IMG/VR virus record: IMGVR_UViG_3300050158_000056
Location: 30,791 to 94,790 of that record
Length of the DNA: 64,000 nt
From: a virus
Direction: 5' to 3' (one strand)
This document shows, piece by piece, positions 2 to 57,505 of this stretch. The stretch's first letter is position 1. The number at the start of each line of letters is the position of its first letter. The position numbers and the translations under genes were made by a program. The notes beneath the pieces were generated by a model. That model worked only from the letters and a program-made list of their open reading frames with translations. It ran no database searches and was not told where the DNA came from.

Positions 2-661
2 CTGATCACTATGTAGCCCCACTGACAGGTCTCGAGATACCGATGGACGGATGATATTCTCAGATGCGTATGTATTCAGATTGGTAAATGCACCATATGC
101 ACCATGTTCCACACTGGTACCCACAATAGTCTTATGAGTAATGACCATGTATGAATGAGGATTGAGCGTCTGACTCATAGCCGAGAATGTCGTTGTGTTA
201 AACGGTTCATCTACAAAGTATCCATTGTAGATACGACGAGTGTTGTTATTGGATCCAGTACTGATACTATTCATACCCAACAGACCACTGGTGGTCTCAG
301 TCAGAATTAATAGGAACCGCCATTTATCATTGAGGTGACTGGCCTTGAATTCGATGGCCGGTTGGATACTAGGCATTAGATTTTCATTGAGGTTGGATCT
401 ACCCATCAGATCTCTAATCATAGTACCTGCACCGACGGTACCGCGAGATGTGAGATCGCGAACCTCCGCAGCATTACTCAGGAAGTTTTCATCGAAACGA
501 TAATTAAATGGACGCAGTCCAACGTCGCCGAATTGGCCCGAGTATGGCCGGAAGAGGTATAGAATCGCGCGGGCGTTGGTGTCAGTGAGATTGTTCTTGT
601 TGCGCTGATCGACATAGTTGTTATTTTGGATATTTAGCCCTAGATTTAAATTGAGAGACAT
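2..661 (-). CDS. picA: PicA/Imp1-like phage-nucleus protein import factor (phiKZ gp69-like), 3' end runs off the window
   Basis: Not in the ORF track. Open frame from ATG at 661 (GGAG upstream): MSLNLNLG..LRPFNYRFD..NLMPS..KWRFLLILTE..TRRIYNGYFVD..LNPHSYMVITHKTIV..ASENIIRP. Fits the recalled gp69 motif order and lies downstream of the gp68-like gene. Confidence 0.65.
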   Translation of the reverse strand, partial: MSLNLNLGLNIQNNNYVDQRNKNNLTDTNARAILYLFRPYSGQFGDVGLRPFNYRFDENFLSNAAEVRDLTSRGTVGAGTMIRDLMGRSNLNENLMPSIQPAIEFKASHLNDKWRFLLILTETTSGLLGMNSISTGSNNNTRRIYNGYFVDEPFNTTTFSAMSQTLNPHSYMVITHKTIVGTSVEHGAYGAFTNLNTYASENIIRPSVSRDLSVGLHSDQ

Positions 662-708
662 GATTCACATACTCCTTTTTGTGCGTTATCAACCATTATG
701 TCAAATCA

Positions 709-735
709 GTAATATAGCGATTCGATGTGTTTGAG
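709..735 (-). promoter_or_regulatory. Early (virion RNAP-type) promoter CTCA-N15-TATATTAC
   Basis: TATATTAC at 709-716 (-), the phiKZ early promoter core; CTCA at 732-735. Confidence 0.75.
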
Positions 736-739
736 CTAT

Positions 740-1996
740 TCAATATAAATTAGGACAGAGTCTCACCAAAGATGTAGGAGCTATAGATGCTACTGCTATA
801 TCGAAGTATACCCCGCACAGTGGTTCATCCTTAGATGTACTATCATACCTGTACAACAAGATCAATGCTTCATCTGTGATCGTTTTGATGATCTTCATCT
901 TGACGGGTTCTGCGATTAAGATCTCTTTGATCTCATCAGTGATACTGGGATGATGATGTACAAACTTCTCGAGTATATTGATCAGTGTATCTGGGTAGAT
1001 ATGTAGATCATTGGTAAGAGCTGGACTCACTTCGTTGAACTCAGGTTCATCGAAGTGACTAATCCGATCCACTAACACATTCTTGTGAAATAGCGTGATA
1101 TCATCTTCAGCTACCATGAGATCGATGTTGATATCGGAAGCTGGTAGATTATCCAAGAACTCTATGACCTGGTGAAATGATTTAGGATTCCTAGCCATCC
1201 TAGGAATATGACTAGTGCGCAGCCTGCCTGTGGATCGTAGGTCCACACTATGCGGTATAGCCATGTTCCTGAAGTCATTAATGGTCCTCACCAATACATC
1301 ATCGCTACTGTAGTGTATGGGTAACAACGATGGATCACGGGTGACATGACCCAGTATCTCTTTTAGATGACTACTGGACATGTCGTAATACGGCATCCTA
1401 CCTATGTCCGATGATAACTTCAGTATGGTGTGCTCGATCTGGTCGGTACTGAAGTTAAGATCAGCTGTAGGAGTATCTGATATGGCTCTGATGAGATCAT
1501 TTTGAATCCAATCGATAATTGGATGATCTATCTTTTTCTTGAACACCTGATCGTGTAGAATAAGATCATTTAAGATAGTAGTCATCGGGTCACAGCTGAT
1601 AGGTCCCACACCTACTAATTCATTCCTGATGTAATTGAGACTAGGGAGATGATTGAATCGATATCCTTTCATCTTACCAGATTTAATCTTAGTCCTCACT
1701 GGGATGAGATACTTATTGTCTTTGTAGTAGTGGATAGTCTCTGAAAAGACATCTCCACCACCCCGACTATGATCCCTGAAATATTCGATAGTTTTTACCA
1801 GTGGGATACTATCACGAGATGATCCCATATCGCCAGTATGGAGTGGATGACCTAGTAGGATATTGGCGGTAGGATCACCCATCTCATCATCGCTATCACA
1901 TTCTCCTTCTCCGTAGAATAAGAACTGAGTATCACCTATCGACATCGGGGTATCTACTTCCCTGACGATAGGTTCTAAATGTAATATTGCTTCCAT
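740..1996 (-). CDS. hypothetical protein
   Basis: 418 aa ORF in operon context; no recognised motif. Confidence 0.7.
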   Translation of the reverse strand: MEAILHLEPIVREVDTPMSIGDTQFLFYGEGECDSDDEMGDPTANILLGHPLHTGDMGSSRDSIPLVKTIEYFRDHSRGGGDVFSETIHYYKDNKYLIPVRTKIKSGKMKGYRFNHLPSLNYIRNELVGVGPISCDPMTTILNDLILHDQVFKKKIDHPIIDWIQNDLIRAISDTPTADLNFSTDQIEHTILKLSSDIGRMPYYDMSSSHLKEILGHVTRDPSLLPIHYSSDDVLVRTINDFRNMAIPHSVDLRSTGRLRTSHIPRMARNPKSFHQVIEFLDNLPASDINIDLMVAEDDITLFHKNVLVDRISHFDEPEFNEVSPALTNDLHIYPDTLINILEKFVHHHPSITDEIKEILIAEPVKMKIIKTITDEALILLYRYDSTSKDEPLCGVYFDIAVASIAPTSLVRLCPNLY

Positions 1997-2018
1997 TTAA
2001 GGCGTCCCTAACGATACT

Positions 2019-3704
2019 TTAAAATGGCTTAGTCCCATCATGGAGAATCAGATACAGATTACAAAGATTACGCAGTGTGTTTTCATCAAACTTACACTCA
2101 GTACCTAACATGGGTCTATCTGATACACCACTGAACTCCCACAACGCTGGAGCCATATTCTCCTTATGAGAATAGTGGATAAGCCATTCTGCCATCTTGT
2201 TAATGTGATTGATGAAATCGATACGATTGACTTCCTGCTTTCTAGCAGAAGTCTTCTTACCGAATGTGTTTACTGGTTTTTCTACAAATCCCTTAAATAG
2301 ATCATTGCACCTATGATACTCAGCTGACTTTAGATTAGCCATCACACGTGAGCTCACACCAGATACACCCACATCAATTGGATTGACCGATGTAATGGAT
2401 GATGCTAACGCGCATAGATCTAACATACCGTGATTGATCAAGAAGATCTGGAGGATAACTACGATGCGCTGATAGATCGGTACTGGTAGATATCCTAGAC
2501 ACTTAGACCCACCAAACCTAGTCCCTATAAACGATGCCACCATGGCCTGTGTGATAGGAGTCACATCAAAGTTATTGGCGGCATAATACGAAACAGCCTG
2601 TTCGTACACATCGATTGGTGTATTGGTGTCGTGGAGGAGTTTAGGAAGCTCCCAGTGAGTGACAGCAGTGGTTACTAAGATAGGCACATCGATGGGCTTC
2701 TTAGAAGTCTTAGATGCATGATCTAGGATACTACTATTATCCTCAGTGTCATAAGACGGTAGTGGTCTACGAGGCATAACCGTCATATCTTTACGCATAG
2801 TCTTAATCTTAGTATCAGCAGTCTTTTTGATACCATCATCGATATAAACCATAGCGTTAGGTACATTACCATCGCGTAGTTTCGTAAAGCACTCATATGT
2901 AGCTAGACGTTTTACGATGATAGTCGCCATAACGATCGACTCAAACATCTCATCATCGACACCGCCACCGTGAGTGAGGATAAACCCAGTTTGAGCATTA
3001 CCCATTGGATTCTTGTCTATGGCTTTGCGAGTATCGGCAATCAAAGAACTTAAGTAATGAGAGAGCTTACTGTAGATGCGCTCCATAGCTCCTTCTTCAA
3101 GACTGGGTTCGATAAGATCAAACGCTAACTTCTCTCGTTGATTAGGACCGATGTTAATGCTATCTAATGCTTTTACAAACTCACCCCAGATAGGTACCAT
3201 GAGCTTACTCATGACACTTATGGCTGTCAGCTCAGCATAGTCGTCTTCTAAGAAAGTCTTTTCCTTGGTGTGATGAGCTTCTTTACCGACATTAGAAAGA
3301 TCAGGATAAAGGAATGGGGCACCTTTACAAAAGGTGATCATTCGAGCTCCGATATTGAGTCGGTTGGTAGTGTGGAAAACTTTAGTCTGGATATTCTCTT
3401 GAACAGTCCGACGATTCTCTTTGTTCATCCCATCGATCTGCTTTTTGGCATACCGATACATCTCGTATAGAGATTCATGTTCTTTTTGAGACAATAGCTT
3501 GTAGAACAAGTTAATGGGATGTAGAATCAGATCACCGATGTGCTTTTCATCATACTTAGCGATCTTTTCATATGTCTTAATCGAGAAGACGATGTCAGGC
3601 TTACCTTCGATGTTTACATTATGTTCGTCTCTGAGGCTCACAGAGGCATCCATGAACGTCGAAACAGATGTCCCTGGGGGGTTGGTGCGGAGAATGCTCA
3701 GCAT
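2019..3704 (-). CDS. non-virion RNAP sigma-like specificity subunit (phiKZ gp68-like)
   Basis: 561 aa; TFLEDDYAELTAISVMSKLMVPIWGEF segment; lies between the ChmC-like and PicA-like genes. Confidence 0.75.
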   Translation of the reverse strand: MLSILRTNPPGTSVSTFMDASVSLRDEHNVNIEGKPDIVFSIKTYEKIAKYDEKHIGDLILHPINLFYKLLSQKEHESLYEMYRYAKKQIDGMNKENRRTVQENIQTKVFHTTNRLNIGARMITFCKGAPFLYPDLSNVGKEAHHTKEKTFLEDDYAELTAISVMSKLMVPIWGEFVKALDSINIGPNQREKLAFDLIEPSLEEGAMERIYSKLSHYLSSLIADTRKAIDKNPMGNAQTGFILTHGGGVDDEMFESIVMATIIVKRLATYECFTKLRDGNVPNAMVYIDDGIKKTADTKIKTMRKDMTVMPRRPLPSYDTEDNSSILDHASKTSKKPIDVPILVTTAVTHWELPKLLHDTNTPIDVYEQAVSYYAANNFDVTPITQAMVASFIGTRFGGSKCLGYLPVPIYQRIVVILQIFLINHGMLDLCALASSITSVNPIDVGVSGVSSRVMANLKSAEYHRCNDLFKGFVEKPVNTFGKKTSARKQEVNRIDFINHINKMAEWLIHYSHKENMAPALWEFSGVSDRPMLGTECKFDENTLRNLCNLYLILHDGTKPF

Positions 3705-4034: not shown

Positions 4035-4709
4035 TTAAAGTAGATTGAGCTCAGATTCAGTATCTGGCGCACCGCCAAATGTAGAACTCTGCGACTGAGC
4101 GGGAGGACGGCTGTAGTTATTACCACCCCCGCTCTGGTTAAAGCCCCCACGGTTACCGCCGCCGCTAGGTGCACCACCAGTGTTCTGCCGCTTAAATGCA
4201 GTGAGCCGCTCAGCTACAGCTGAGTTCTTGAGTACATTGATGATAAAGCTAATATCAGCCTTAAGTGAGTCCTTCTCATTCATCGACGTATTCGAGAAGT
4301 CGAAGCGGCCATCCTTCTTGACGACAAACAGATAGCGATTGGGGAGTTCGTTCGCTGCGACATCGATATAGAAGCTCAGATTATCATCGATACCAAAACC
4401 GATACAACCATACTGCTTAAAACCCTTACGACCATCAGCTTCTTCAAAACGATTGAGGAACACTGGTTCACGCTTAGGACGAGGATCCGCGATCATATTC
4501 TCCAAGAGGATGATAAACGAATCGATCGTCTTACGAGGAAGAGTCAGCTTCCATGGCTTACCACCTTGACCAGTGAAGATACAGAAGCTAGAAAAGCCTC
4601 CGAATACATCGAATGACAAAGACACGTTCTTGTCTTCCTTAGAAGGGAGACGAAATAGTCCCGACTGAGTAAGATTCTCGAAACTATATTGAGTAGGAGC
4701 TTGTGACAT
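4035..4709 (-). CDS. chmC: ChmC-like nucleus-associated RNA-binding protein (phiKZ gp67-like)
   Basis: Beta-rich domain plus G/N/R-rich disordered tail (GGGNRGGFNQSGGGNNYSRPP); immediately upstream of the gp68-like gene; likely start MSQAPTQ. Confidence 0.65.
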   Translation of the reverse strand: MSQAPTQYSFENLTQSGLFRLPSKEDKNVSLSFDVFGGFSSFCIFTGQGGKPWKLTLPRKTIDSFIILLENMIADPRPKREPVFLNRFEEADGRKGFKQYGCIGFGIDDNLSFYIDVAANELPNRYLFVVKKDGRFDFSNTSMNEKDSLKADISFIINVLKNSAVAERLTAFKRQNTGGAPSGGGNRGGFNQSGGGNNYSRPPAQSQSSTFGGAPDTESELNLL

Positions 4710-4778: not shown

Positions 4779-5693
4779 TCAAATGAAATCGTATTTTCTA
4801 AAAGTACTAGTAGGTAAGTTAAGCTTCCTAACTATCTTACCTAATAAATCATCATTACTTCTAGATGACCATCTCTCTTTTTCTGCTTGTTCTAACAACT
4901 CTCGTTTTATCTTAATACCGATCCAGGATTTAATCAAGACACCATCACCGAAGATGACGTGGGTGATGGGTAGGAAGGGAATCCTCCCCTCCTTATCTAA
5001 TTTTAAACCAAAATCACGAGGATGTTTTACTAAGCCAGTATAACTCTCTAAGAGCTGTACATTTCTGATACGAAAACTAAGGTACCAATCTAGTGGTATG
5101 TGTGAAATTAATCCAACGCTGTCTCCTGTAGAATACAGACTAGTGGGATGATTAGTGATCTCACGAAACTTACTAGCGACATCTTTGTGTGGGTAGGTAC
5201 TACCACCTGCTTTTATCCAGAAACATTTTACAAACTCGAGTTGTTTAACCTGTCCGGTATGATTACCATGTTTACCTAGAAACTTCTTATACATAGCTAA
5301 GAAAGCCAAGTGCTTTTCAGAACTATCTCTGAGGATCTCGTTCGGTAGGTCATGATAATCTGGAAAGTAAATTATCACTGGAGCCTGTTTATTCCTAGAT
5401 AGCGTACCTAACACTAACGATAAGTACGTATCATAATACTCTAGGAAAAGATTTACATCTTTTACAAAACCTTCTTCCATATCACTCATAGTGGGTTGTT
5501 TATGCATGGAATAGATATTTCGAAAAATAGTAAAAGCTGAAATCACAAAAGCTGAGAACTGGGGCTTCTTGTCGCTAGAAGCCCCAGCTACAAACTTGTT
5601 TAATATTCGGTTAAACCCGATACTACCACCGCGAATAAGCTCGCTGCCATCCTCAGATTTCGGCATGGTAGATTCATCTGGGAATGCTCCCAT
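4779..5693 (-). CDS. conserved phiKZ gp66-like protein (possible PIN/5'-3' nuclease-like fold)
   Basis: LLESYTG motif; lies between SbcD and ChmC. Confidence 0.6.
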   Translation of the reverse strand: MGAFPDESTMPKSEDGSELIRGGSIGFNRILNKFVAGASSDKKPQFSAFVISAFTIFRNIYSMHKQPTMSDMEEGFVKDVNLFLEYYDTYLSLVLGTLSRNKQAPVIIYFPDYHDLPNEILRDSSEKHLAFLAMYKKFLGKHGNHTGQVKQLEFVKCFWIKAGGSTYPHKDVASKFREITNHPTSLYSTGDSVGLISHIPLDWYLSFRIRNVQLLESYTGLVKHPRDFGLKLDKEGRIPFLPITHVIFGDGVLIKSWIGIKIKRELLEQAEKERWSSRSNDDLLGKIVRKLNLPTSTFRKYDFI

Positions 5694-5708: not shown

Positions 5709-6851
5709 CTATGTAGGGGGAGTAGATAAATACTCATCTATCTGCTCGATGGTTAAGTCATAGTCTTCTGGTATATGTGCTCGTACAAATGAAGCTATCG
5801 TCTTGGGAGTAGGAGCCACCTGACGCTCTTTCTTAGTCACCACAACTGATGACATCAGTGAGAAGTTTTGTGACTTACTATCTACCTCAGTTTTGATAGT
5901 GCATTTTACTTTAGGATAATGTTCACCCAACCAAGCCTTGATGGCTTTTCCTAGTTCACTAGACTCAATCACGATCCTAAGTGAAATAGTCCTATAGGTA
6001 GTAATACTGGATAAGTATTCGATGATCTTAGTACGGATGATGTCAGTATCTGGATTATCTTTAAAATACAAAGTCGAGAATATAGCAGAGTTCTTGTTCT
6101 CTATGAACTGAGCTTTATACTTATCAGGATAATCTAATACTTTAACATATCCTTTGGGATCTTCATCACCGTGGTTGAGTCTATCGAAGCTACCATTGCT
6201 GACTACTTTACCACTGATACGATGTTGATGGACATGACCTACATCTATCATCTTTTTGATAAATGGAAACTGGGACTCTCTAAACACGATACAGTTTTCT
6301 TGACTGATAGCTTTAGGATAAGTAAAGTCAAAGAATCCATGCATACACCCATAATCCAATTCATCCCATCCACGCTCCACCATCCTGTCTTTAATAACAG
6401 AGACGATTTCGTCGGATGATTTAAATGGTAGATCATCTGGTACATACATCACTCGTATGGATCTATCTCCACGCGTGATTTCTTCTAACTCTATAGTGCC
6501 CATAAACTTAAAGTCAAATGTGAACTTATTGTTCTTATAAAAGGTAATGAACCTTTCGCATTGTTTTCTATCGTGAGTGAATGTACCTTGTAATACTCGT
6601 AGAGTCACATTGTGCATATCACATAATCTAAATAGTCCCATGATGACTTCATAGACTGGATCGAATCCATAGTTGTCAAACAACACTAATGTGTCGAAGA
6701 AGTCGCCATTCAAAAACATGATATCGGTTTCAGGTAATATAGGAAAGAATGCATCAGCAAATGCATCTGCCATTTCTTTTTGATCTATAGACCTAATACC
6801 AAGATGCAGATCACTAGCGAATAGTAGCCTAAGAGGCTCACTCATCGTCAT
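5709..6851 (-). CDS. sbcD: SbcD/Mre11-like metallophosphoesterase nuclease
   Basis: SDLHLG, GDFFD, GTFTHD, HG and GHVH motifs. Confidence 0.9.
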   Translation of the reverse strand: MTMSEPLRLLFASDLHLGIRSIDQKEMADAFADAFFPILPETDIMFLNGDFFDTLVLFDNYGFDPVYEVIMGLFRLCDMHNVTLRVLQGTFTHDRKQCERFITFYKNNKFTFDFKFMGTIELEEITRGDRSIRVMYVPDDLPFKSSDEIVSVIKDRMVERGWDELDYGCMHGFFDFTYPKAISQENCIVFRESQFPFIKKMIDVGHVHQHRISGKVVSNGSFDRLNHGDEDPKGYVKVLDYPDKYKAQFIENKNSAIFSTLYFKDNPDTDIIRTKIIEYLSSITTYRTISLRIVIESSELGKAIKAWLGEHYPKVKCTIKTEVDSKSQNFSLMSSVVVTKKERQVAPTPKTIASFVRAHIPEDYDLTIEQIDEYLSTPPT

Positions 6852-7571: not shown

Positions 7572-7985
7572 CTACAGATAGCTAGTGAGTAGGTTATTTT
7601 CAGGTATTACGAGTCTACCATTTTTGAGAGATATAGTAGCACCAGTCTGACCGATCTCTCCAGAAAGCATAGTGTAAATGATACTGATAGTGATATCATA
7701 AGTACCACTAGCATCAGTGAGTGCATTGGTTACAGCTACAGTGATCTTACGCTCTGCATCGAAGATACGATTGAAGCATCCCTGTAGGTCACTCTGTATG
7801 TTATTACAGAGCGTATCAGCATCTCTATGAAACTTAGCTACTAGCCAAGGGAGAGATATAATCAGATCTGGTACTATAGGTACAGTGTGTTGAGGGGTCC
7901 TAAAGAACCTATTGAGAGTATAGGCTATAACTGACTGTACGTCATCGACGTATAGTGATCCAGTTAGGCTAGGTACAGTTACCAT
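7572..7985 (-). CDS. conserved phiKZ gp62-like protein (possible gp25-like baseplate wedge fold)
   Basis: 137 aa; VPSL N-terminus; gene order. Confidence 0.5.
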   Translation of the reverse strand: MVTVPSLTGSLYVDDVQSVIAYTLNRFFRTPQHTVPIVPDLIISLPWLVAKFHRDADTLCNNIQSDLQGCFNRIFDAERKITVAVTNALTDASGTYDITISIIYTMLSGEIGQTGATISLKNGRLVIPENNLLTSYL

Positions 7986-8664: not shown

Positions 8665-9279
8665 TTAGCCTCTACTCATTTCGATCGATGTCGGATCTCG
8701 ATCAGTCTTAGCTAGGATCTTATCACGGATAAAGTCCCTAGTCTTATTGATCGCATATAGCTCATCGTCTGTCAGATCGGGATCATCTGTATAACTAGTA
8801 CCAGAGATATCATACCACCCATCTTCATCACTATCACGTAACACATCGTGACATGTGAAGTTCTCGATGAGTCGTCCATAAACGTCCTCAGTTGGCAGCC
8901 AATCTGAATCCCATCCGAATCCTTCCATACGACCTTCCCTGACAGCCTTCAGGACAGGCTCATACATGAGGATCGGTATCTCCATCCGCAGTGGGATGGT
9001 CTTAAAGTCATCGATAGTACTCAAGATACGAATGTTATCCGGATTCATAATCGCATTAACCGTCCTAGAGATATCTAGGCCGAGCTGATCCATAGGAGCC
9101 ACATATCGACTGAAGAACTCCTGTCGTAAATGACCAAAGTCCTCCCCGAAGAAGCTTCTATGCCCCCCATTATTTATCGAGTTAAATACTTCATTACTGA
9201 CTCTCGAACCAGTAAGTACGCCCAGTGAAGGCATAGCGTTGCCTGAGCCTATTGTGATGGTGTCGTGAATTCTAGCCAT
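8665..9279 (-). CDS. phiKZ gp59-like core protein (Imp3-like)
   Basis: IRILSTIDDF..MYEPV..GRMEGF..YGRLIE..DPTS pattern; downstream of the beta' subunit gene. Confidence 0.55.
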   Translation of the reverse strand: MARIHDTITIGSGNAMPSLGVLTGSRVSNEVFNSINNGGHRSFFGEDFGHLRQEFFSRYVAPMDQLGLDISRTVNAIMNPDNIRILSTIDDFKTIPLRMEIPILMYEPVLKAVREGRMEGFGWDSDWLPTEDVYGRLIENFTCHDVLRDSDEDGWYDISGTSYTDDPDLTDDELYAINKTRDFIRDKILAKTDRDPTSIEMSRG

Positions 9280-10761: not shown

Positions 10762-12571
10762 CGTTATGTTCAGCATAGCTCGTTAGGCTATACTCGCACC
10801 ATGACGTGCAGCTACTCCTCTCAGAGCAGACCAGATCATATCTTCACCTTTACTCATCTGAGTATTAAGGGCCCACCACTTCGGACTCACGCGAGTCCTA
10901 CTCCCTCTCGGGATGATCGTTGGAGTTTCTACATATCTCATAGAAGACTTAGTAGCTTACCTGCGGATTGAGCAATCTCACATATCTTTTACCGTACCGT
11001 AGGGATTAGCTACGCCATCAGCTATATTTCTATACTGACTTGGTGTATGGAGCTCTAAGCTTGTTCCCGTCAATTCAATGGGTTATTTTACTTATCATTT
11101 CTGATAAGGGCGACCTGTCTATATTTAGTATAATTTGATGATTTCTTTAGGATAGTCTTTTAGATCGATATGCGCGAAAACCCAATCGCGCCATCGACAT
11201 GGTGGTTTCTTACAGTGCTTTATATATCTAGCGATTACCGCTGGATCGCATCTACTAGGTCTATCTTCATTAGACCAACTGGTGATATTGGTGTAATACC
11301 GCACAGATCCATACTGATCAGTTATCTTAATAGGTCGATCAGATGCATGTATGTTAGAATATATGTTCAGTACATCTTGTGGATATATAGGCCACGTCAA
11401 TTCCTCGCGATTACCCGCAGATTGAAAACATCTACCTCTCCACGGAATCAACTCATCACTATCGAGTAGTCTGAATAATGTGTGATCAGTGATATCCTGT
11501 TCTCTGATAACATCAGTTATATTGTCGTATACGAGTACTTTTCGAGTATCCATACGCATACATGCAATTTTGTTTGGTGGAACTCGTCTCTGTACTGGCC
11601 CAGATGCAGTTAACTCATCCCATGATCTAGAATCTGAGGTATATTTAAAAACATACCCTTTATAAGGTCGTCCTTCGTAAGGTCTTCTGTCCATCACAGA
11701 ATGCGCTGAGCCAGGTGCTACCCCGAGATATCTGGCCATGTCATGATACCCAGAAAATATCTGTTCCTGCCCAGTAGCAAGATTCTTACCTACTATCTTT
11801 CGGATAGTTTCGCCTCTAGGACCTTCATTGAACGAATGAAAGTTATTGTCCGTATATGTAGCCCATTCTAAATTGGATATAGCATTATTCCGTTTATCAC
11901 TGTCCCTGTGATTCACGGTGAGGTGGACTGTGTCGATAGGATGAGATATAAAAGCTAACGCAATAACTCTATGCCATCTTAACCGTCGTTGGGTGTTTGG
12001 TATATTGATAGTACAATAACCATCTCCAGTTGGTTTATACCCAATCTCCCGATACGTTGCGGCGCATCTTGCTAATGGTACACCATTATGCAGTCTCACC
12101 TCTATCTCTGGATGATTAGGTACTGATATCCAAGTAGTAGTACCAAAATCAATTCCCAGTAGCGGATTTGGCCTATACCACTCATCGCTCCACTCTAGAT
12201 TAGAGATATGGATATTATCCTTATTACCATCCACAAACCTTACAGACATCCATTCGGGATCTTTATCTGGAGACAGTGGCTTGTAGGTCAGTAACATCAG
12301 TCTATCTAAAGGATGAGATGACGGTTTGTGAGATTTACCTCTAATCTTTACAGCACGTTTTCCGTGATGATTACGGTACTCTGGTATTACTGCATTGGTG
12401 GATATCAGACGGACTACACCATGTTCGTCGATATCATACATTGGGTTTGTAGGTATTTTCATGAAACTTTTCCTTAGTATGCAATTGGGTTTCATACTAA
12501 GGTATAAAAACTATCCTTATTTTGTTATATAAAATAACTTAAGTCATCAAATAACTATATTAAGAGGTCAA
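10762..12571 (-). mobile_element. group I self-splicing intron with HNH ORF in the P1 loop
   Basis: 5' exon GGCGAU pairs with IGS GUCGCC (11109-11114) with U-G at the splice site. P10: UAGAC (11117-11121) pairs with exon 2 GUCUA. P2: CUUAUCA-GAAA-UGAUAAG. P: AAUUGACGGGAA (11064-11075). Q: AAUCCGCAG (10961-10969). R/S form P7 GAUCAU/AUGAUC (10913-10918, 10834-10839). Ends in G at 10762. Confidence 0.9.
11125..12495 (-). CDS. intron-encoded HNH homing endonuclease (NUMOD4/HNH type)
   Basis: HRVIALAF..VNHRDSDKRNNAISNLEW plus a degenerate first HNH-like copy (FVDGNKDNIHISNLEW). Confidence 0.88.
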   Translation of the reverse strand: MKPNCILRKSFMKIPTNPMYDIDEHGVVRLISTNAVIPEYRNHHGKRAVKIRGKSHKPSSHPLDRLMLLTYKPLSPDKDPEWMSVRFVDGNKDNIHISNLEWSDEWYRPNPLLGIDFGTTTWISVPNHPEIEVRLHNGVPLARCAATYREIGYKPTGDGYCTINIPNTQRRLRWHRVIALAFISHPIDTVHLTVNHRDSDKRNNAISNLEWATYTDNNFHSFNEGPRGETIRKIVGKNLATGQEQIFSGYHDMARYLGVAPGSAHSVMDRRPYEGRPYKGYVFKYTSDSRSWDELTASGPVQRRVPPNKIACMRMDTRKVLVYDNITDVIREQDITDHTLFRLLDSDELIPWRGRCFQSAGNREELTWPIYPQDVLNIYSNIHASDRPIKITDQYGSVRYYTNITSWSNEDRPSRCDPAVIARYIKHCKKPPCRWRDWVFAHIDLKDYPKEIIKLY

Positions 12572-13858
12572 ATCGCCGTCAAAATCGGCATTTTGAAGAG
12601 CTACATCCAAAGGACTCATACCTACGGCACTGTCTTCTAGATCAGTCTTAATCCTAGTCCAGTATTTTAACATCACTGAACCATCTCTGATCGAAGGAGG
12701 TCTGTCCCACAAACAGGGTATACCTGGAAATGGAGATTCTTCGATCATCTGATCCATGATCTCTTTAATCAGTGGATCGAATGTATTAAGGGCTGTACGC
12801 ACTTTACTAAATGCGACATTCACATTCATGTCGTATCGTTTACACAAACGACCGATGATGTGTACTCGTAGAGTGTTTACTGCCATCTTCCATGGAATGT
12901 GGAGTTCATAGTACTGATGAGGTCCTACGATCGGTACGATCACACCTCGGAACGACCAGTGAAATCTAGCACCGAAGATATGTGTACGAGGGATAGCCTT
13001 TTTCGTAGCTACATACTTCTTGGTGGCTTCTTCTACATAGTCGATGATGTTCTTAAATGCTTTAAACGCGATGCGCTCAGCATAGATGGTTTGGTTCTTT
13101 CGTTTCTTAGGAGCAAACTCTAGCCTAGATAGAGATACAGCTGCTTTCATGATGTGGTCAGCGGTGGTATCACTATAGCGCTTCTTATTGGGTCCACCAC
13201 CTTCTTGTGTGATGATAGGATTGATTGCAGCATTGAGGATAGGGATATAGTGACAGAAGACGATGTCTTTGTAGAGTTCGATGCAGAACTTCATAGACAG
13301 AGTATCTGGCTTCTTAGAGATTACTGGATGATCGAAGTAGAAGAAGTTCATGATCCTATCAAAGTTATCGTACAAGTAGTTAAAGCCTCTACCATCGATG
13401 ATACCGATGAGGTCGAACGGTAGTACCGAGTCTACATCTAGGATATCATCTAGATAGTTTCGTTTACCTTTGTCGTACGACAACCATGCTGCCAGGTTAA
13501 GATATAACTTAGGTGCGAGCCATCCATTAGGTAGCTCTTTAGGAGCCATGAGCCAGTTTCGACAGATGAGATTGTCTTCGTCCAAGATATTGCGTTTGGA
13601 TACCTTAGTTTCACAGACCGGACACGTCATGTCGATCTTATTATTACCCTCAGTGTGACCACATTGACACTTTGCAATGAAATCGGCCCCAGTCCCATCT
13701 GAGAAAATTAGATCACTGAGTTGGTCGATATAATCCGTATCAGTAAGGTCAAATTTATTCAGAATGATCGGGTCTATATCAGATCTATTAAGTACTAGAT
13801 TAAACTGATCATCGTGAGAAACCAATTTCAGAACTCGTTTTGTGTCATCGCTCAGCAC
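12572..13858 (-). CDS. nvRNAP beta' N-terminal subunit (phiKZ gp55-like), exon 1
   Basis: Zn-finger CQCG..CPVC, FRGVIVP, RPPS; catalytic NADFDGD at the exon end; spliced product 483 aa. Confidence 0.92.
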
Positions 13859-25360: not shown

Positions 25361-25798
25361 ATGACATATTCAATAGGAACATACGACAGCACTACACAGA
25401 CTGTCCCAGTGACATTCGATCTCAATGGTCGTACGTATGTTAGATCCATACAGGCAGTATTGGACAATGGTACTACCTATAATGCGGTGGCCACTGATCT
25501 AATAGTGCAGAAACTAGTATCTGGTCAGATGTATCGATCGGAAATCGAAGACTCATTAACAGGTGGCCATCTTAGTCCTACTAAATGGACCAGATTAGGT
25601 GCTATCTATAAGTTCATTTTAAATGGTACTGGCTTAGTAACGATAGACACACTGCTACGTGATAAAGTCACTATCAGTACATCAGTCACATCCTTTTCAG
25701 CTACTGGTACTGAGACTATCCAGTACTATGTGTTTAATACTAATGTCGGGTACATTAGAGCGACACTTACAGGTACTGCCACTGCTGAATTAGTATAA
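25361..25798 (+). CDS. tail-fibre-associated small protein
   Basis: Follows the fibre gene; N-terminal domain shared with 28409-28861. Confidence 0.6.
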   Translation: MTYSIGTYDSTTQTVPVTFDLNGRTYVRSIQAVLDNGTTYNAVATDLIVQKLVSGQMYRSEIEDSLTGGHLSPTKWTRLGAIYKFILNGTGLVTIDTLLRDKVTISTSVTSFSATGTETIQYYVFNTNVGYIRATLTGTATAELV

Positions 25799-25873: not shown

Positions 25874-26590
25874 ATGGTAGATGTTACAGCCACACAGACG
25901 GCTCTCTTAGCCTTTGGTTACAATCCTGGTCCGATAGATGGATCATGGGGTAGAGGTACGATGACGGCTATCTTGTGTCACCAGGTACAAAGACAGCCTG
26001 ACGCGATGTTAAAGATGTTTGGTCAAGCGCTGGCTAATGAACTACCTAAACACGGTATTACCGCCACTAAGTTTAGACTAGCCGAGTTCATGGCAGAGAC
26101 ATCTCATGAGACGGGTGGGTATACCAGATTCGAAGAGAACATGCATTACTCAGCTAAGCGACTCATGCAAGTATGGCCTAATCGATTTAAGACGCTACAA
26201 TCAGCATTACCCTATGCTTGGGACCCGACTGATCCAGACAAAGAAGATGTAGCTCTAGCTAATTATGTCTATGGTACTCGCATGGGTAATGAATCTAATG
26301 GTACTAGCGATGATGATGGGTGGGATAACCGTGGTGGGGGCCTTATCCAACATACTGGCAAAGCTGAGTATGCCATCCTAAAGAGTCATCTAGGACTCAC
26401 GTCTGAACAAATTCATACAGATCCGGCATCTATGGTATTGGCCGTATGCGACTACTGGGATCGCGTTAAAGCTAATGACTATATCGATCGTAGTAACTTC
26501 GTCGATTTACGTAAGCGTGTGAATGGTGGCACGCTGGGTGTAGACGATGTAGCAGCTAAGCGTAATCGTAGTCTGTTAGTCATTAAGTAA
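25874..26590 (+). CDS. endolysin, glycoside hydrolase family 19 with N-terminal peptidoglycan-binding segment
   Basis: GYNPGPIDG.WG; F.A..SHETGG..EEN; RGGGLIQHTG; VNGG..G..D. Confidence 0.88.
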   Translation: MVDVTATQTALLAFGYNPGPIDGSWGRGTMTAILCHQVQRQPDAMLKMFGQALANELPKHGITATKFRLAEFMAETSHETGGYTRFEENMHYSAKRLMQVWPNRFKTLQSALPYAWDPTDPDKEDVALANYVYGTRMGNESNGTSDDDGWDNRGGGLIQHTGKAEYAILKSHLGLTSEQIHTDPASMVLAVCDYWDRVKANDYIDRSNFVDLRKRVNGGTLGVDDVAAKRNRSLLVIK

Positions 26591-47531: not shown

Positions 47532-47682
47532 GATATTACCCTCCTTTAAAACAACGTAGAATAAGATGGTCTATCTCATTCATCAAGCCAGTGATATAGT
47601 GTTTGTTATTTTTGATCTCGGAGGTTTTAAAAAAGATACCCCACCCAACGATACTACGACTAAGAATTTAAAGGTATCTAAT

Positions 47683-50214
47683 ATGCGATTTATAAGTCTA
47701 TCATTGACTGAGTATGAGTATGTACGCGACTCAGATATCAGTCACATCGAAGCTAAATTTTCATCTGATGTACAGTTAGTTATCGGGAGTAACGGAAGTG
47801 GGAAATCTAGTATGATGCGGATGCTGTCCCCCTATCCAGCTACTAGAACGATGTTTGGTAAGGGAGGACATAAATCTCAACAGATTGAAAAGGATGGTGT
47901 AGTCTACACACTCGAGTCCGACTTTTCAAAACCATCATCTCCTCACTTGTTTTATGAAGGAGATAATCTAGAGAATCTAAATATCGGTAGGACTACAGAT
48001 GCACAAAAGGATCTTATCGTAGAGCATCTGGGCATTACCCCATTTGTAGATGATCTGATTATGAACAGATATACTTTTCCCAAATGGTCAGCTACCAAAC
48101 GTAAAGAATTTGTCATGGCTAACAATCCTGATCAGATAGGATTTGTACTGACTCATTTAAAACAGATCTCATCCAAGATCAGAGCTTGTAAGAATAACTT
48201 AGCTAGATTACAGACACGTAAGATCTTACTAGAACAGGATCTATTGTCACCAGAGGTCACTCAAGAACTCATCGATGAGAAAGTAGCTATCGATAGTGAG
48301 CTGGGATTGTTTCAGAAGAACCTCATGGATATCGAGGTAGGTCTTAGGACTATATCTCATCAATCACATATGTCTATCGATATCAGTGGCCTTAGAAAGA
48401 CTGTGAGGAACTGTCGATATAAACTAGCATCATTGAGTCATGTGAGTAGAGACGACTATACACGTAGTCAGGATAGAGAGAATCTCATCGGTCGTATCGC
48501 TGGATGTGACCAAAAGATCCAGACTATCGAAGAGGATATCATCCGTATCACAGATGGCCTTAGAGATATGGAAGTGAGATATCTAGAGATAGCGCCTAAT
48601 GATGATTTAGCTAATATCGATCTTAGCATCTCTAAGTTAGAAGATGAGCGTAATAGATTACAAGTCACTCAGCCTCCATTCGAGATAACTCATGATGAGT
48701 TAGTCACTAAGTATGATGAATGGAATGAGGTCAGAGATAGACTATTGTTATTCACTGATTGTGAGGTGACCCTACTCAATCGGAATAAGAGGACTCATAG
48801 AGAGCAGCTACTCAATAACCTTAGTCATCGTAAGTCATCTATAGAGATGTCGCTGAGTGACTTTAGGACTCGATATGAGAGCCTATCTAAACGCAATAGT
48901 CTTAGTCCATCAGATATACCAGACAGTCCATGCGCTAAAGACAAGTGTCCTTTGTACAATCACTTTCTAGGTGAGTATACTACAGCTGAAGAACAACGGC
49001 AGACTTTGAAAAATAAGATAGCTAGACTAGAACATAAAGAGAAGAGAATCCATTTACTCTTAAATGCACTAACTGACTATCAGAAAAGATCTAAGCCTTA
49101 TTACGATGAGATTAGATGGCTAGTCTCCTATGCTCAGAGTAATCCGATACTCCATCATATCTTACGACAGATGGATATCATGAGTGCATTGCAGCACAAT
49201 AGTAATTCTATATCTAGAAAACTAAAAGATGCGTATGATCATATCGATCAGTGGATTAGATTGAAGTCAGTGGTATCTGATCTTGAAACAGCCTATACTC
49301 TTAAAACCCGTAAATTAGGCTCTCAGAACAATGATACGATAAACCTAGTTAAAGGTATAGAGAATGCTAAGAACTCACTGTACGAGCTCCGTGGAGTAAT
49401 CTATGGGGTATCCAACGATCGTAGTGTATTCAGGCAACAATTAACTGACATAAATACATTCGATAATCTAAAAAAGACCACTTTAGAAATTAAAGGTCAG
49501 TATATCAAGATCGCTAATTACTTAAGTGATAATCATGAGAAAGATAAGTTAGCTTTTCTTAAGAAATCCATAGAGTCAGTAAGATCGGAACGATTCCTAA
49601 GGTTATCTGATATAGAAAGGACTCTGCGTGCTCAGGAGTCTCTCCAATCTAGATACACCGAAGAAGTCGTATATGAGATTACTAGGATAGAAAAAGAGAT
49701 GAGTGATTTAGAGCAGATGGAAAAAGCTCTAATAGCTATCCCTAAGGAAAGTACTATCAACTTCTTGAATGATATATTTGAGCAAGCTAATAAGATTATC
49801 GAATCGGTATGGACTATACCGCTGAGGATAGAACTACTGTCTGATACAGATCAGCTCAATTATGAATTTACTGTGTCTGGAGATAACAACTCCAAGAGAG
49901 AAATAAGTGATTGTTCCGATGGTCAAAATGAGATCATTACATTGGCCATTAATCTAGCGTTGCGGATAAATCTAGGGCATTTGGATTTACCTATTGCGTT
50001 AGATGAGGCTGGTAGGACAATGGATGATACTCACAAAGAGAAGTTACTATATCTCTTAAAACAACTCCTCGATGATCGCATCATATCTCAATTGTTCTTA
50101 GTGAGTCACACAGCAGTAATACATGAGGGTTTTTCAGACGCTGAGACTCTAGTCGTCAGAGAGGATAATGTGTTTCTCCCTGAGATCTACAACAAACACG
50201 TTAAGATAATCTAA
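47683..50214 (+). CDS. sbcC: SbcC/Rad50-like ATPase (phiKZ gp165-like)
   Basis: Walker A GSNGSGKSS, coiled coils, CAKDKC hook, SDGQ signature, IALDE, H-loop VSH; start MRFISL. Confidence 0.9.
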   Translation: MRFISLSLTEYEYVRDSDISHIEAKFSSDVQLVIGSNGSGKSSMMRMLSPYPATRTMFGKGGHKSQQIEKDGVVYTLESDFSKPSSPHLFYEGDNLENLNIGRTTDAQKDLIVEHLGITPFVDDLIMNRYTFPKWSATKRKEFVMANNPDQIGFVLTHLKQISSKIRACKNNLARLQTRKILLEQDLLSPEVTQELIDEKVAIDSELGLFQKNLMDIEVGLRTISHQSHMSIDISGLRKTVRNCRYKLASLSHVSRDDYTRSQDRENLIGRIAGCDQKIQTIEEDIIRITDGLRDMEVRYLEIAPNDDLANIDLSISKLEDERNRLQVTQPPFEITHDELVTKYDEWNEVRDRLLLFTDCEVTLLNRNKRTHREQLLNNLSHRKSSIEMSLSDFRTRYESLSKRNSLSPSDIPDSPCAKDKCPLYNHFLGEYTTAEEQRQTLKNKIARLEHKEKRIHLLLNALTDYQKRSKPYYDEIRWLVSYAQSNPILHHILRQMDIMSALQHNSNSISRKLKDAYDHIDQWIRLKSVVSDLETAYTLKTRKLGSQNNDTINLVKGIENAKNSLYELRGVIYGVSNDRSVFRQQLTDINTFDNLKKTTLEIKGQYIKIANYLSDNHEKDKLAFLKKSIESVRSERFLRLSDIERTLRAQESLQSRYTEEVVYEITRIEKEMSDLEQMEKALIAIPKESTINFLNDIFEQANKIIESVWTIPLRIELLSDTDQLNYEFTVSGDNNSKREISDCSDGQNEIITLAINLALRINLGHLDLPIALDEAGRTMDDTHKEKLLYLLKQLLDDRIISQLFLVSHTAVIHEGFSDAETLVVREDNVFLPEIYNKHVKII

Positions 50215-50232: not shown

Positions 50233-50634
50233 GTGAGTAAAGAAGAGGATATACTCAGACGAGAAAATAGATCTCTGAGAGATAAGTTGAATCTACTAGA
50301 AGAACAGAACCTCCAATTACGGGAACAGATAACTAAACTATCACTACCGACTGAGTGGGAAGTGCCCACTACACTTAACCTAACTCCATGTGAGCAGACT
50401 ATACTCAAACTACTGTACGAATCACCAGGAGTGGGGAGTAGAGAGAAGTTTATCAATTTACTCTATCTTAATAAGCCTAGTGCTGACCCACACAGTGGTA
50501 ATCTGATAGATGTGTTTATTTCTAAGATTAGGAAAAAGAGTAAGCCATTTGGTGTAGATATAGATTGTGTGCGGGCTAGAGGATATGTACTATCTAACGA
50601 TAGTAGGACTATCCTAGCTAACTGGGATAAATGA
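50233..50634 (+). CDS. OmpR/CtrA-type winged-helix DNA-binding protein with N-terminal coiled coil and no receiver domain
   Basis: LTPCEQTILKLL..LIDVFISKIRKK..VRARGYVL. Confidence 0.8.
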   Translation: MSKEEDILRRENRSLRDKLNLLEEQNLQLREQITKLSLPTEWEVPTTLNLTPCEQTILKLLYESPGVGSREKFINLLYLNKPSADPHSGNLIDVFISKIRKKSKPFGVDIDCVRARGYVLSNDSRTILANWDK

Positions 50635-54273: not shown

Positions 54274-54585
54274 CTAGCAAGTGGTATTACCAGTGGATGG
54301 ATTGACTACAGTGCATGCGGTGGTAGGAAGTGAGAATGGCGGTGTACCTGTACTTGGTGGATTGATAAATCTAGGATCTATATTGGTTGGTAGAGGACTC
54401 GGACTAGTAAACTTAGGATCGATATTCCACTTAGGAATACTAATAGATTCTTTCAATTCAGGAGTCTCTTTTGTGAATACTAGTTTGAGATGCTCCTTAA
54501 TACAATCCCACTGTTCCGGAGTAGGTGGAGTACCATTGAGTTCTACAAACCCATTTAACCAGTAGGTGAAATTCTCAGGTGTCAT
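54274..54585 (-). CDS. conserved phage hypothetical protein
   Basis: MTPENFTYWLNGFVEL..QW..IKEHL.LVF.K.TP; Pro-rich tail with NIDP.F repeat. Confidence 0.65.
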   Translation of the reverse strand: MTPENFTYWLNGFVELNGTPPTPEQWDCIKEHLKLVFTKETPELKESISIPKWNIDPKFTSPSPLPTNIDPRFINPPSTGTPPFSLPTTACTVVNPSTGNTTC

Positions 54586-55078
54586 GTCCGAATACCTCTC
54601 TTTGGTTATCTCTACCTAACTCAATAATAGATTCATGATTACCGATATTGTTTCCCTGATTATCATGGGCCGTATATCGGATACTGATGTCATTGTTGTT
54701 AGGTGACTGATTGTCATTAATCAGCCTCCCATTCTCACCGATATCGATGGTGTAATATTCTTGACTATCGAAATCAATAATCAACAGCGCTCCTGAGAAA
54801 CTATCCAGTCGCGGTTTACTGCAAGTATATGCGAATGTAATAGCTTTACGGCCAGTTAACCCAAACTTAGCCCCTTGGGCTAGGATGAATATGGGCAGAT
54901 CTTCCCTATCCAGAGCCTCGTCGAAATCCCGGATAATCACTGACCTGGGGTCAGTGTGATCTCGGTGTACGATAAAACTAGCATCTTCGATAGCCTCCCA
55001 CGCGATGATAAATTCACTCACTTGATCTGGATTGTTGAGTTTGAGACTTGTGACGAAATTCGTATAATAATCAGTCAT
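54575..55078 (-). CDS. hypothetical protein, tandem paralog A
   Basis: MTDYYTNF..TGRKA..TCSKPRLDSFSG. Confidence 0.7.
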   Translation of the reverse strand: MTDYYTNFVTSLKLNNPDQVSEFIIAWEAIEDASFIVHRDHTDPRSVIIRDFDEALDREDLPIFILAQGAKFGLTGRKAITFAYTCSKPRLDSFSGALLIIDFDSQEYYTIDIGENGRLINDNQSPNNNDISIRYTAHDNQGNNIGNHESIIELGRDNQREVFGHDT

Positions 55079-55079: not shown

Positions 55080-55544
55080 TTAGTTATCCAATTGTTCTAG
55101 GGTGACACAGTTGAAGTCGAGTGATAGTACCGATGAAGTTGGGTTGCTATTTATAGTCTCAGCAAGTCCTTCTATAGTCAGAAACCTAGTCAGCTTAGTA
55201 TCGAAGTCGAACACCAATAGTGTCCCACCAAACCCATCGAGACGATGTTTAGAACAGGTGTTGGCCAAGCTGAATGCTTTCCTACCAGTAAAACCAATCT
55301 GATCGGATAGATGGTACATGAACTTACAAAGTTGATCCTTATCCACTCCACCACCAATGTCTTCTATGATTAACATAGTTTCGTTGTCTGGATGTTTACT
55401 GACATCAAATGTCGCTTCGCCATCGGCATTAAGTTCTTTGTATAGACCGAGTGCTTTTTCGGCGGCTTCTTTATTTTCAAAATTAACTGGTTCAGCAAAT
55501 TGAGTATAGTAGTCAGCCATCTTTATATCCTCGTGTGTAAACAT
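55080..55544 (-). CDS. hypothetical protein, tandem paralog B
   Basis: MADYYTQF..TGRKA..TCSKHRLDGFGG. Confidence 0.7.
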   Translation of the reverse strand: MFTHEDIKMADYYTQFAEPVNFENKEAAEKALGLYKELNADGEATFDVSKHPDNETMLIIEDIGGGVDKDQLCKFMYHLSDQIGFTGRKAFSLANTCSKHRLDGFGGTLLVFDFDTKLTRFLTIEGLAETINSNPTSSVLSLDFNCVTLEQLDN

Positions 55545-56090: not shown

Positions 56091-56150
56091 GATCTATCTC
56101 CTAATTACTCGTAGAATCGTCTATAAAAGATATATAAAAAACAATAGATA

Positions 56151-56177
56151 GGATGGAGGGGTAATACCCCTCCATCC
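56151..56177 (-). terminator. hairpin terminator with offset U-run
   Basis: ggatggaggggta/tacccctccatcc; A6 on + at 56136-56141. Confidence 0.8.
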
Positions 56178-56195
56178 ATACCTTAGATTACTTAT

Positions 56196-56396
56196 TCAGA
56201 TATAACTAGCTAGTTTCCAAACTGCTACGACAAAGAAACTCACTAAGCTTAGTACCGTGGACAATCCGGTCAGTGCCCCGACAGTGTGATATACGACGTT
56301 GCGAATACCAGTAGTCTCTTTATTGAATATCGAATTGCCTAGATTGATTACAAAGCTAACTACGAATATAAGGAGTGATAGCTGTAGAGTGGTCAT
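56196..56396 (-). CDS. small two-TM membrane protein
   Basis: Hydrophobic; directly downstream of phuZ. Confidence 0.55.
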   Translation of the reverse strand: MTTLQLSLLIFVVSFVINLGNSIFNKETTGIRNVVYHTVGALTGLSTVLSLVSFFVVAVWKLASYI

Positions 56397-56422
56397 GACG
56401 TATATCCAATCTTGCTATTTTG

Positions 56423-57505
56423 TTATAGGATGAGATCACTATCGCCATTAGTGGATGTATCCACTGACAGACGTGATACGTCCTGATACTTCTGAGCCTT
56501 TTCCTGATGCTGCATCTTTTCTACCTTATCGATAATCGATTCGATAGCCGAGATGTCGCTAGTTACTTTAGCCACAATCGGATGGTGAGGCTCTGCGTAG
56601 AAACCAGTCTTCTTCAATCGTGAGATAGGGAGAGGAGTGTTATCACGCATGACTTCATCTGGAGATGATTGGAAGATCAATACTGAGTCTACCATTTCTT
56701 TCGATGACGTACCCAATACCACCTTATTGTCAAATGGGTTCTTATCGGAAACAAACGACATGAGTTTGAGACCAGGGGTTGTGTCGATGACCTTAGATGG
56801 ATTAATCCAATTAAGACGATCATTGCGATCTACTTCATACACCGACTTAGTCAGAGTATCTAGCAGCGCCGATACGATATTTGCGCAGCTATCATTGACT
56901 ACCTGACGAGAATTAGCTTCGTCGTTAGATAGTACAATGAGAGGTAGATAGAGGTCATTGTTCTTTGCGATAGCTGTGAGAGTCTTTAAGGTATTGAGAG
57001 TGTTCTTAGCCCCAACTGCATAAGAAGTATCCGCAACTGCGACCCCAATGACTCGCATACCGCGCCGCGCATATTCGCGGATCATAATTGGTGCAATGAC
57101 AGAGCCACTGCCGCCAGCCAGTGAGAACATAACTACCGCTACATCAGAAGCACCGATTTCAAGGTCAGTGATCTGCGGAATGAGTCGCTCGATATCCCGC
57201 GCATGCTCAGCGCGGCGCGATCCGGAACCATGTCCTTCCCCGATAACGTATACATCTTCTCCGTGTCGGCTATTGGTCATGGATGTGTCGAAATACAGGA
57301 CGTTGGCGGCCTGCTTAGAAGGCTTAAACATACGACTTAGATTAATTCCACAACCGCCGCAGCCAGCAATCGTCAGCGACACAGCAGAATAGTTTTCAGA
57401 AACACTCATTGTAGTATTCTCCTCAGGGACAGAAACAGGAGTTGGTGGAGTCTTCTTAACAGGACGTTCAGAAGGAGTGGAAGGCGTAGGAGCAGTTAGA
57501 TCCAT
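56423..57505 (-). CDS. phuZ: PhuZ phage tubulin
   Basis: GCGGCGIN, DTS, GHGSG, tubulin signature SLAGGSGS, D..D in T7, acidic C-terminal DSDLIL. Confidence 0.93.
   Translation of the reverse strand: MDLTAPTPSTPSERPVKKTPPTPVSVPEENTTMSVSENYSAVSLTIAGCGGCGINLSRMFKPSKQAANVLYFDTSMTNSRHGEDVYVIGEGHGSGSRRAEHARDIERLIPQITDLEIGASDVAVVMFSLAGGSGSVIAPIMIREYARRGMRVIGVAVADTSYAVGAKNTLNTLKTLTAIAKNNDLYLPLIVLSNDEANSRQVVNDSCANIVSALLDTLTKSVYEVDRNDRLNWINPSKVIDTTPGLKLMSFVSDKNPFDNKVVLGTSSKEMVDSVLIFQSSPDEVMRDNTPLPISRLKKTGFYAEPHHPIVAKVTSDISAIESIIDKVEKMQHQEKAQKYQDVSRLSVDTSTNGDSDLIL

Follow-up and report, generated by a model that had tools for sequence, protein, structure and literature searches.

The 64,000-nucleotide stretch of viral DNA analysed here (hereafter the window) comprises bases 30,791-94,790, the 3' two-thirds, of the 94,790-bp IMG/VR contig IMGVR_UViG_3300050158_000056, and is best explained as a piece of the genome of an uncultured jumbo phage, lytic and phiKZ-like (Chimalliviridae-like). 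On this reading the phage represents a deep branch, so far without a cultured member, among the nucleus-forming phages. An earlier note, made from the sequence alone, had read in the window strongly diverged genes for the nuclear shell protein chimallin (ChmA), for PicA-, Imp3- and ChmC-like proteins, for a non-virion RNA polymerase (nvRNAP) and for the tubulin PhuZ, and had proposed an alphaproteobacterial host on the basis of four clues. We compared the 273 open reading frames (ORFs) of the contig with the ChmA-to-helicase block of six cultured phages (phiKZ, Goslar, RAY, RP12, Noxifer and Eowyn), and we put the probability that the divergent gene set of a nucleus-forming phage is present at about 0.93. 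Judged by sequence and predicted fold, the phage appears to fit this kind in the defining genes, namely those for ChmA, the nvRNAP, PicA/Imp1, Imp3 and a phiKZ-type capsid protein (Table 1).

The shell protein was recognized by its fold, by profile comparison and by its position. An AlphaFold2 model of the 541-amino-acid (aa) protein, whose start codon lies at the same position in its homologues, was built on 33 metagenomic homologues and reached a predicted local distance difference test score (pLDDT) of 82 and a predicted template modelling score of 0.82. When this model was searched against the PDB with Foldseek, the nine best matches were all chimallins (E 1.9e-17 to 5.8e-13, probability 1.00), while the tenth match reached only E 1e-2. 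The fold in common with the chimallins of Goslar (7SQT-7SQV), 201phi2-1 (7SQQ-7SQS and 8IGG) and PhiPA3 (8FNE) extends over the whole chain, with template modelling (TM) scores of 0.56-0.63 over roughly 540 columns and 10-12% identity in the structural alignment. Similarly, hhalign matched the ChmA alignment of the clade (A1) to that of the six cultured ChmA proteins with a probability of 89.7% (E 1.8e-6), the six unrelated family alignments used as controls giving at most 0.5%. Moreover, the gene adjoins a gp55-like gene, as it does in phiKZ, Goslar and RAY. The link to known chimallins runs through profile-profile and fold comparison alone: tblastn against 50,697 phage records, phmmer against the PDB, and Pfam and PHROGs scans returned no match, and the profile of 33 sequences found nothing in the PDB and nothing in the whole phiKZ genome. 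The chimallin identity proposed in the earlier note is thus upheld, the fold being present.

The ChmA of the window is a compact form, about 84-170 residues shorter than those of the cultured phages (541 aa versus 625-711 aa in six phages). Residues 1-33 and about 500-541 have low pLDDT and are modelled as disordered, yet they contain residues conserved in the clade, and such disordered N- and C-termini fit the tail-mediated lattice of the solved chimallins. When the core and the C-terminal tail were folded as separate chains, the pair scored 0.58 (best control, 0.00), with a contact agreement between runs of at least 54% and a partner pLDDT of at least 33. Of 80 solved complexes 58 attained this mark, as did 2 of 110 mismatched pairs; only 7 of those 80 complexes, together with both passing mismatches, fall at scores of 0.60 or below, and the support is weak. 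Because chimallin lattices have already been solved, the pass may reflect likeness to known lattices rather than an independent test.

Public data contain 41 ChmA and 34 PicA homologues of this clade, 38-70% identical and carried on contigs of up to 308 kb. An identical ChmA occurs on 11 contigs, the longest of 107 kb, and a metagenome relative on a 243.6-kb contig encodes a ChmA that is 61% identical. A precomputed table lists the family PF25677 for three ChmA clade members (P0022, P0024 and P0039); a Pfam scan of the same three proteins at E values of up to 1 did not return it.

PicA, a core gene confined to nucleus-forming phages, of which the window holds the N-terminal part (the ORF runs 1,003 bases beyond the window start), was identified in a comparable manner. 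The alignment of 34 homologues (A2) matched that of the six-phage PicA proteins in hhalign with a probability of 91.5% (E 8.6e-7; cross-family controls, at most 0.5%). The PicA model (pLDDT 78) matched 15 chimallivirus proteins of about 500-567 aa in BFVD (Foldseek E 3e-20 to 1e-15, TM 0.6-0.7), among them the Eowyn ORF069 homologue and RP12 ORF278, both proteins of the gp69 position, and the next match appeared only at 2e-4. There was no fold match in the PDB, as expected for a family-specific fold. The profile of 34 sequences had no sequence-level match in the phiKZ record or in the PDB, tblastn against phages and the Pfam and PHROGs scans found no match for the protein, and used alone as a query it retrieved no locus from the viral contig collection. 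The Imp3-like protein was found with a profile hidden Markov model (HMM) from the six phages, the next-best ORF of the contig reaching only 0.31, and its gene follows downstream of the beta' gene, the arrangement seen in the cultured phages; its length agrees as well. The ChmC candidate was the top match of its HMM, at a weak E value, and occupies the gp67 position. Its last 59 residues include 12 glycines and 6 asparagines, and its C-terminal end reads DTESELNLL; this asparagine/glycine-rich tail with an acidic tip matches the architecture reported for ChmC, in which an N/G-rich region is followed by an S/D/E-rich tail (bioRxiv 10.1101/2023.09.22.559000). Membership in the ChmC family is probable. 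All three proteins had been named in the earlier note, and the comparisons agree with it in each case.

The defining feature of a split beta/beta' nvRNAP with a gp68-type fifth subunit is also present. The gp55-like and gp68-like subunits lie in the window, in agreement with the earlier note, and gp71-, gp73- and gp74-like subunits lie upstream of it on the contig. The gp55-like protein matched 244 phage records in tblastn, all at less than 30% identity. Its first exon is followed, just after NADFDGD, by a group I intron adjoining an HNH gene, the same arrangement as in phiKZ (gp55/gp56/gp56.1) and Goslar. Indeed, the minus-strand genes follow the phiKZ order from gp54 to gp75 across the contig. 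The block order held in common with phages of the type of phiKZ, 201phi2-1, PhiPA3, Goslar, RAY, RP12, Noxifer and Eowyn is ChmA, nvRNAP beta' (with intron and HNH gene), Imp3, SbcD, gp66, ChmC, gp68, PicA, the gp70 position, the nvRNAP beta pieces and the helicase. The part upstream of the window holds, in order, the gp70-position protein, a small reverse-strand gene, the gp71-, gp73- and gp74-like pieces and the gp75 helicase; the small reverse-strand gene between the gp70 and gp71 positions is common to the contig, RAY and phiKZ. The gp70-position protein has no detectable similarity to the cultured gp70. In addition, gp68 and PicA are adjacent in all six cultured phages, whereas here they are separated by a 418-aa ORF with no Pfam or PHROG match and no homologue in the six cultured loci. 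As for the virion RNA polymerase, phiKZ gp80, the subunit compared, had no match on the incomplete 94.8-kb contig. PhuZ, a further claim of the earlier note, is confirmed by its PHROGs match and by five cultured PhuZ proteins (phmmer against those of Eowyn, RAY, Goslar, phiKZ and Noxifer, 6e-24 to 5e-8).

The proteins of the window are only 13-28% identical to those of the six cultured genera, and in all eight proteins compared the window is further from each cultured genus than the genera are, on average, from each other. For ChmA the values are 15-18%, versus 19-38% among the cultured genera; for PicA, 13-18% versus 18-44%; and for gp55, 24-28% versus 26-49%. In the cultured Chimalliviridae-type phages, BLAST and HMMER searches found no match for ChmA, PicA or the capsid protein (tblastn for the capsid protein), and megablast with 20 kb of the contig against the 50,697 phage records found nothing. 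No new mechanism is involved; the novelty lies in how far the proteins have diverged, in the compactness of the chimallin and in the probable class of the host.

Table 1. Features of the window and of the upstream part of the contig (window positions unless marked as contig positions)
Feature	Position	Strand	Basis
PicA/Imp1 homologue, N-terminal 220 of 554 aa	2..661 (full ORF contig 29787-31451)	-	profile-profile match and fold
Extra 418-aa ORF between gp68-like and PicA-like genes	740..1996	-	no homologue found
nvRNAP fifth subunit, phiKZ gp68-like	2019..3704	-	six-phage HMM E 5e-26; phmmer vs phiKZ gp68 1e-8; phrog_3209
ChmC/Imp6-like nucleus-associated RNA-binding protein (predicted)	4035..4709	-	six-phage ChmC HMM E 1.3e-3, top match
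phiKZ gp66-like conserved protein	4779..5693	-	HMM E 1.4e-15
SbcD/Mre11-like nuclease (phiKZ gp65)	5709..6851	-	phmmer 1.6e-35; matches in six cultured phages
phiKZ gp62-like small protein	7572..7985	-	phmmer 2e-4 to 8e-4 vs RAY, phiKZ, RP12
Imp3-like import factor, 204 aa (phiKZ gp59, 203 aa)	8665..9279	-	six-phage Imp3 HMM E 1.3e-5
Group I intron core interrupting the nvRNAP beta' gene	10812..11150	-	Rfam RF00028, 52 bits (gathering score 50), E 1.3e-11
HNH homing endonuclease of the beta' intron	11125..12495	-	phmmer vs phiKZ gp56 and gp72, 4e-16 and 1e-18
nvRNAP beta' N-terminal subunit (phiKZ gp55-like), exon 1, ending at NADFDGD	12560..13858	-	PDB 7OGP chain A E 1.9e-38
Chimallin (ChmA), nuclear shell protein, compact 541-aa form	15618..17243	-	predicted fold, profile-profile match and position
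Small protein, look-alike of the one at 28409-28861	25361-25798	+	similar by eye over the first 50 or so residues
Endolysin, PG_binding_1 and GH19/chitinase-like catalytic domain	25874..26590	+	Pfam PG_binding_1 1.4e-4; phrog_181 endolysin 5e-42
Putative i-spanin with nested o-spanin (26981-27247, lipobox LLSAC)	26620..27303	+	read from the translations
Small protein, look-alike of the one at 25361-25798	28409-28861	-	similar by eye over the first 50 or so residues
phiKZ-type major capsid protein	39267..41504	+	Pfam PF25620 PhiKZ_MCP E 3e-20
SbcC/SMC-like ATPase	47566..50214	+	Pfam SMC_N at 2e-8
Receiver-less winged-helix (Trans_reg_C) protein	50233..50634	+	Pfam PF00486 at 3.4e-7
MADY-family paralogue 2	54575..55078	-	tblastn vs 82 alphaproteobacterial loci, best E 1.4e-12
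MADY-family paralogue 1, 146 aa from MADYY	55080..55520	-	relatives 29-40% identical
PhuZ tubulin	56423..57505	-	phrog_4733 'tubulin PhuZ' E 9.8e-42
Second group I intron, between gp71-like and gp73-like beta pieces	contig 23311-23645	-	110 bits
Five upstream ORFs	contig 502-2106, 9968-10924, 11469-12176, 13697-14311, 17573-18163		

We regard an alphaproteobacterium of plant litter as the most likely host and hold this as probable, because the nearest relatives of two small genes of the window, the tandem MADY paralogues, are all alphaproteobacterial plasmid or integrative and conjugative element (ICE) genes, and because a relative of the phage in the same clade encodes a permuted transfer-messenger RNA (tmRNA) of the alphaproteobacterial type. 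The MADY...TCSKPRLDGFGGGA family of alphaproteobacterial conjugative plasmids and ICEs has its N-terminal MADY and TCSK.RLD.F.G motifs in common with the two phage paralogues, of which the second (P0078) is 33% identical to the first. Searched with tblastn, which carries no motif bias, a collection of 72,556 plasmids dominated by taxa other than Alphaproteobacteria gave 89-92 MADY records, and 85 of 85 among the matches listed were alphaproteobacterial (Rhodobacterales, Sphingomonadales, Hyphomicrobiales, Acetobacterales, Caulobacterales and Niveispirillum). When 185,579 species, represented by one genome each, were scanned with motif patterns from a narrower alignment (A4), a search thus biased to the TCSKPRLD and MADY motifs, 561 relatives were found; the best 80 of these were alphaproteobacterial or unnamed 'Proteobacteria', bar one 3-kb contig of a metagenome-assembled genome (MAG). 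Among 400 Pseudomonadota drawn at random, at least 4 of the 5 strong matches lay on elements 89-100% identical to named alphaproteobacterial plasmids; the random 400-genome samples of the class and of the phylum gave 5 and 6 matches, too few to compare, and these were placed by similarity to named loci. The family matched no phage record and no Pfam family. As a host clue of the earlier note it therefore holds, being restricted to alphaproteobacterial mobile elements in the collections searched.

In bacteria, the MADY gene sits in an accessory block with DUF932, RadC, DUF6878, ParB and ArdC-like genes, with an 'antitoxin' gene directly after it. In the phage, the MADY genes lie among small early-type genes; the 'antitoxin' neighbour was not found on the contig, and none of the other contig ORFs matches the 82 alphaproteobacterial MADY loci. 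The sole non-proteobacterial label among the best 80 loci belongs to that MAG contig, of 3,066 bp and assigned to 'uncultured Rikenella sp.', which is probably a binning contaminant because it has 77% nucleotide identity to a Mesorhizobium locus. Around MADY, a Niveispirillum plasmid has a 6.3-kb stretch with 97.7-99.98% nucleotide identity to loci of Hyphomonas, Novosphingobium, Sphingobium and a Rhodobacteraceae MAG, which suggests that one conjugative element has spread very recently among alphaproteobacterial orders.

The second clue comes from IMGVR_UViG_3300049988_000124, a 307,821-bp record rated 100% complete, which is another species or genus within the same divergent clade, with 49% identity in ChmA and 57% in the capsid protein. 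It matches the alpha_tmRNA model with 59.3 bits (cut-off 50), and Caulobacter was the sole match among the 14 genomes used as controls; ARAGORN describes the tmRNA as permuted, with the tag ...AANDNEMDIRLVA. The MADY family was not found in this relative, so the MADY and tmRNA clues are mutually independent. Shine-Dalgarno cores, present upstream of 27 of 54 genes versus 8.7% in the background, and the putative spanins fit a proteobacterial host. Near-identical DNA occurs in 23 leaf-litter sequencing runs, each with a different study code, and these also count for an alphaproteobacterial litter host. One of the 23 runs may be the source sample, and one freshwater run holds a small share.

The other three clues of the earlier note carried no alphaproteobacterial signal; its host reading is supported as probable by MADY together with the tmRNA of the relative. 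The winged-helix protein had been labelled CtrA-type. This identity is not supported: the protein has no receiver domain and matches only the generic Trans_reg_C family, its best PDB matches are PhoB-family regulators and ArlR, and its look-alike clusters in the ESM Atlas are mostly viral. Only five marginal plasmid matches were found, adjoining sensor kinases, three in Acetobacteraceae/Rhodobacterales and two in Variovorax. The tail-associated domain that had been read in the two small look-alike proteins has no taxonomic signal, and neither tblastn of the tail fibre against phages nor an ESM Atlas look-up of the 145-aa protein gave a host signal. The genes for these two proteins flank the lysis and tail-fibre region, and their Atlas features give a weak lead to XepA-like proteins of PBSX-type elements (score 0.92-0.93). 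Finally, the module of GH19 endolysin and nested spanins is real, but it indicates only a diderm host. The candidate i-spanin has a membrane segment at its N-terminus, and the ORF embedded in its gene in the +1 frame carries a lipoprotein signal; such an embedded pair implies a diderm host.

Among the alternatives, the one that survives best is that the same kind of phage has a leaf-litter gamma- or betaproteobacterium (Pseudomonas, Burkholderiales, Xanthomonadales or Erwinia) as its host and acquired MADY long ago or indirectly. We consider this, like any other proteobacterial class, unlikely, and anything outside the Proteobacteria very unlikely. The hosts named in the 244-record gp55 tally, gamma- and betaproteobacteria or Bacillus, would speak for a gamma- or betaproteobacterial host, as would the best tblastn phage matches of the endolysin, which come from phages of Ralstonia, Pseudomonas, Erwinia and Haemophilus (33-42% identity). 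However, the endolysin tally says little, because the phage collection is dominated by gamma- and betaproteobacterial hosts; these matches reflect the make-up of the database and are without host signal. Host conservatism is likewise a weak argument, because in each of the eight proteins compared the clade falls outside the six cultured genera. Furthermore, no accessory gene with a gamma- or beta-specific signal was found, a result that the earlier note had counted as a test of its reading, MADY was not seen outside the Alphaproteobacteria among the plasmid matches listed, and the clade relative carries an alpha-type tmRNA.

Several points nevertheless weigh against the picture of a nucleus-forming phage on an alphaproteobacterium. 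There is no direct phage-host link, such as a spacer match, an isolate, or a tRNA or tmRNA on the contig, and the cultured relatives named in the gp55 tally infect other bacteria. The identity of MADY to its bacterial relatives is only 29-40%, which makes the acquisition an old one, and the 308-kb relative lacks the family. This relative is distant and richer in guanine plus cytosine (GC; 56% and 50% in two sampled stretches versus 41% in the window, a wide spread for a single clade), and its host may therefore differ. The ChmC assignment draws on a weak E value, position and composition, and we infer nucleus formation in this phage only from homology. In addition, a GC content of 41% is far below that typical of Sphingomonadales or Rhizobiales, which is weak evidence. 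We rejected low GC as a refutation of an alphaproteobacterial host, because phiKZ-type phages lie far below the GC of their hosts: a 50-kb stretch of phiKZ has 37%, and its Pseudomonas host about 66%.

The same 41% is close to the GC content of many Bacteroidota, and the source is leaf litter, so a host in another litter phylum with about 40% GC, such as Bacteroidota, could be imagined. We consider it highly improbable, since Bacteroidota largely lack Shine-Dalgarno cores, which precede half of the genes here, since the predicted embedded i/o-spanin pair has a classical lipobox, and since the MADY and tmRNA clues point elsewhere and chimallivirus GC is a poor guide to host GC.

If the proteins act as their homologues do, with the roles of ChmA, nvRNAP, PicA, Imp3, ChmC and PhuZ taken from earlier work (PMC12908238; bioRxiv 10.1101/2024.03.27.586873), the infection can be sketched by homology. 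After injection, early genes would make the compact chimallin, which would use its flexible tails at both termini to self-assemble into a lattice around the replicating phage DNA. Inside the shell, transcription would fall to the split multisubunit nvRNAP (gp55-, gp68-, gp71/73- and gp74-like), PicA/Imp1 with Imp3 would select proteins for import, and ChmC/Imp6, a Whirly-type RNA binder with a condensate-prone tail, would handle the mRNA at the shell. PhuZ would position the compartment at the centre, and finally the GH19-type endolysin and the embedded spanin pair would lyse the diderm host. It is conceivable, although we give it very little credence, that the lineage builds no closed nucleus and uses its compact chimallin in another role, for example as a partial scaffold, given the shortness of ChmA, its low identity to the six cultured proteins and the undetectable gp70 similarity; yet the full-length chimallin fold is kept (TM about 0.6 over roughly 540 columns), its disordered termini hold clade-conserved residues, and PicA, Imp3, ChmC and PhuZ, retained in the same gene order, make sense only with a closed shell.

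Some further features of the contig can be mentioned. Its GC content is 41%. It has no terminal repeat and is therefore a fragment, and no tRNA or tmRNA gene was found on it. Upstream of the window it encodes a BCS1-like AAA ATPase, a MYG1-family exonuclease (E 5e-46), a dCTP-deaminase-like protein, a DUF7194 protein and a NYN-domain nuclease.

Taken as a whole, we lean, by somewhat more than an even chance, towards the view that the contig belongs, together with roughly 40 metagenomic relatives, to an uncultured nucleus-forming lineage on Alphaproteobacteria of plant surfaces and litter, with a compact chimallin of about 540 aa and a place outside all cultured genera. The nucleus-forming phages studied so far have gamma- and betaproteobacterial hosts, and full-text literature searches, reviews and surveys yielded no report of an alphaproteobacterial host for a chimallin-encoding phage. 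Alphaproteobacteria, which include plant symbionts, plant pathogens and dominant leaf colonisers, would thus widen the range of this anti-defence strategy. With identity down to about 15%, ChmA, PicA and the capsid protein still keep fold and gene order and show which features of the system are truly constrained. Moreover, if this lineage is as we describe it, the phage nucleus would predate the split of alpha- and gammaproteobacterial phages, and its proteins would offer a minimal shell protein for structural work.

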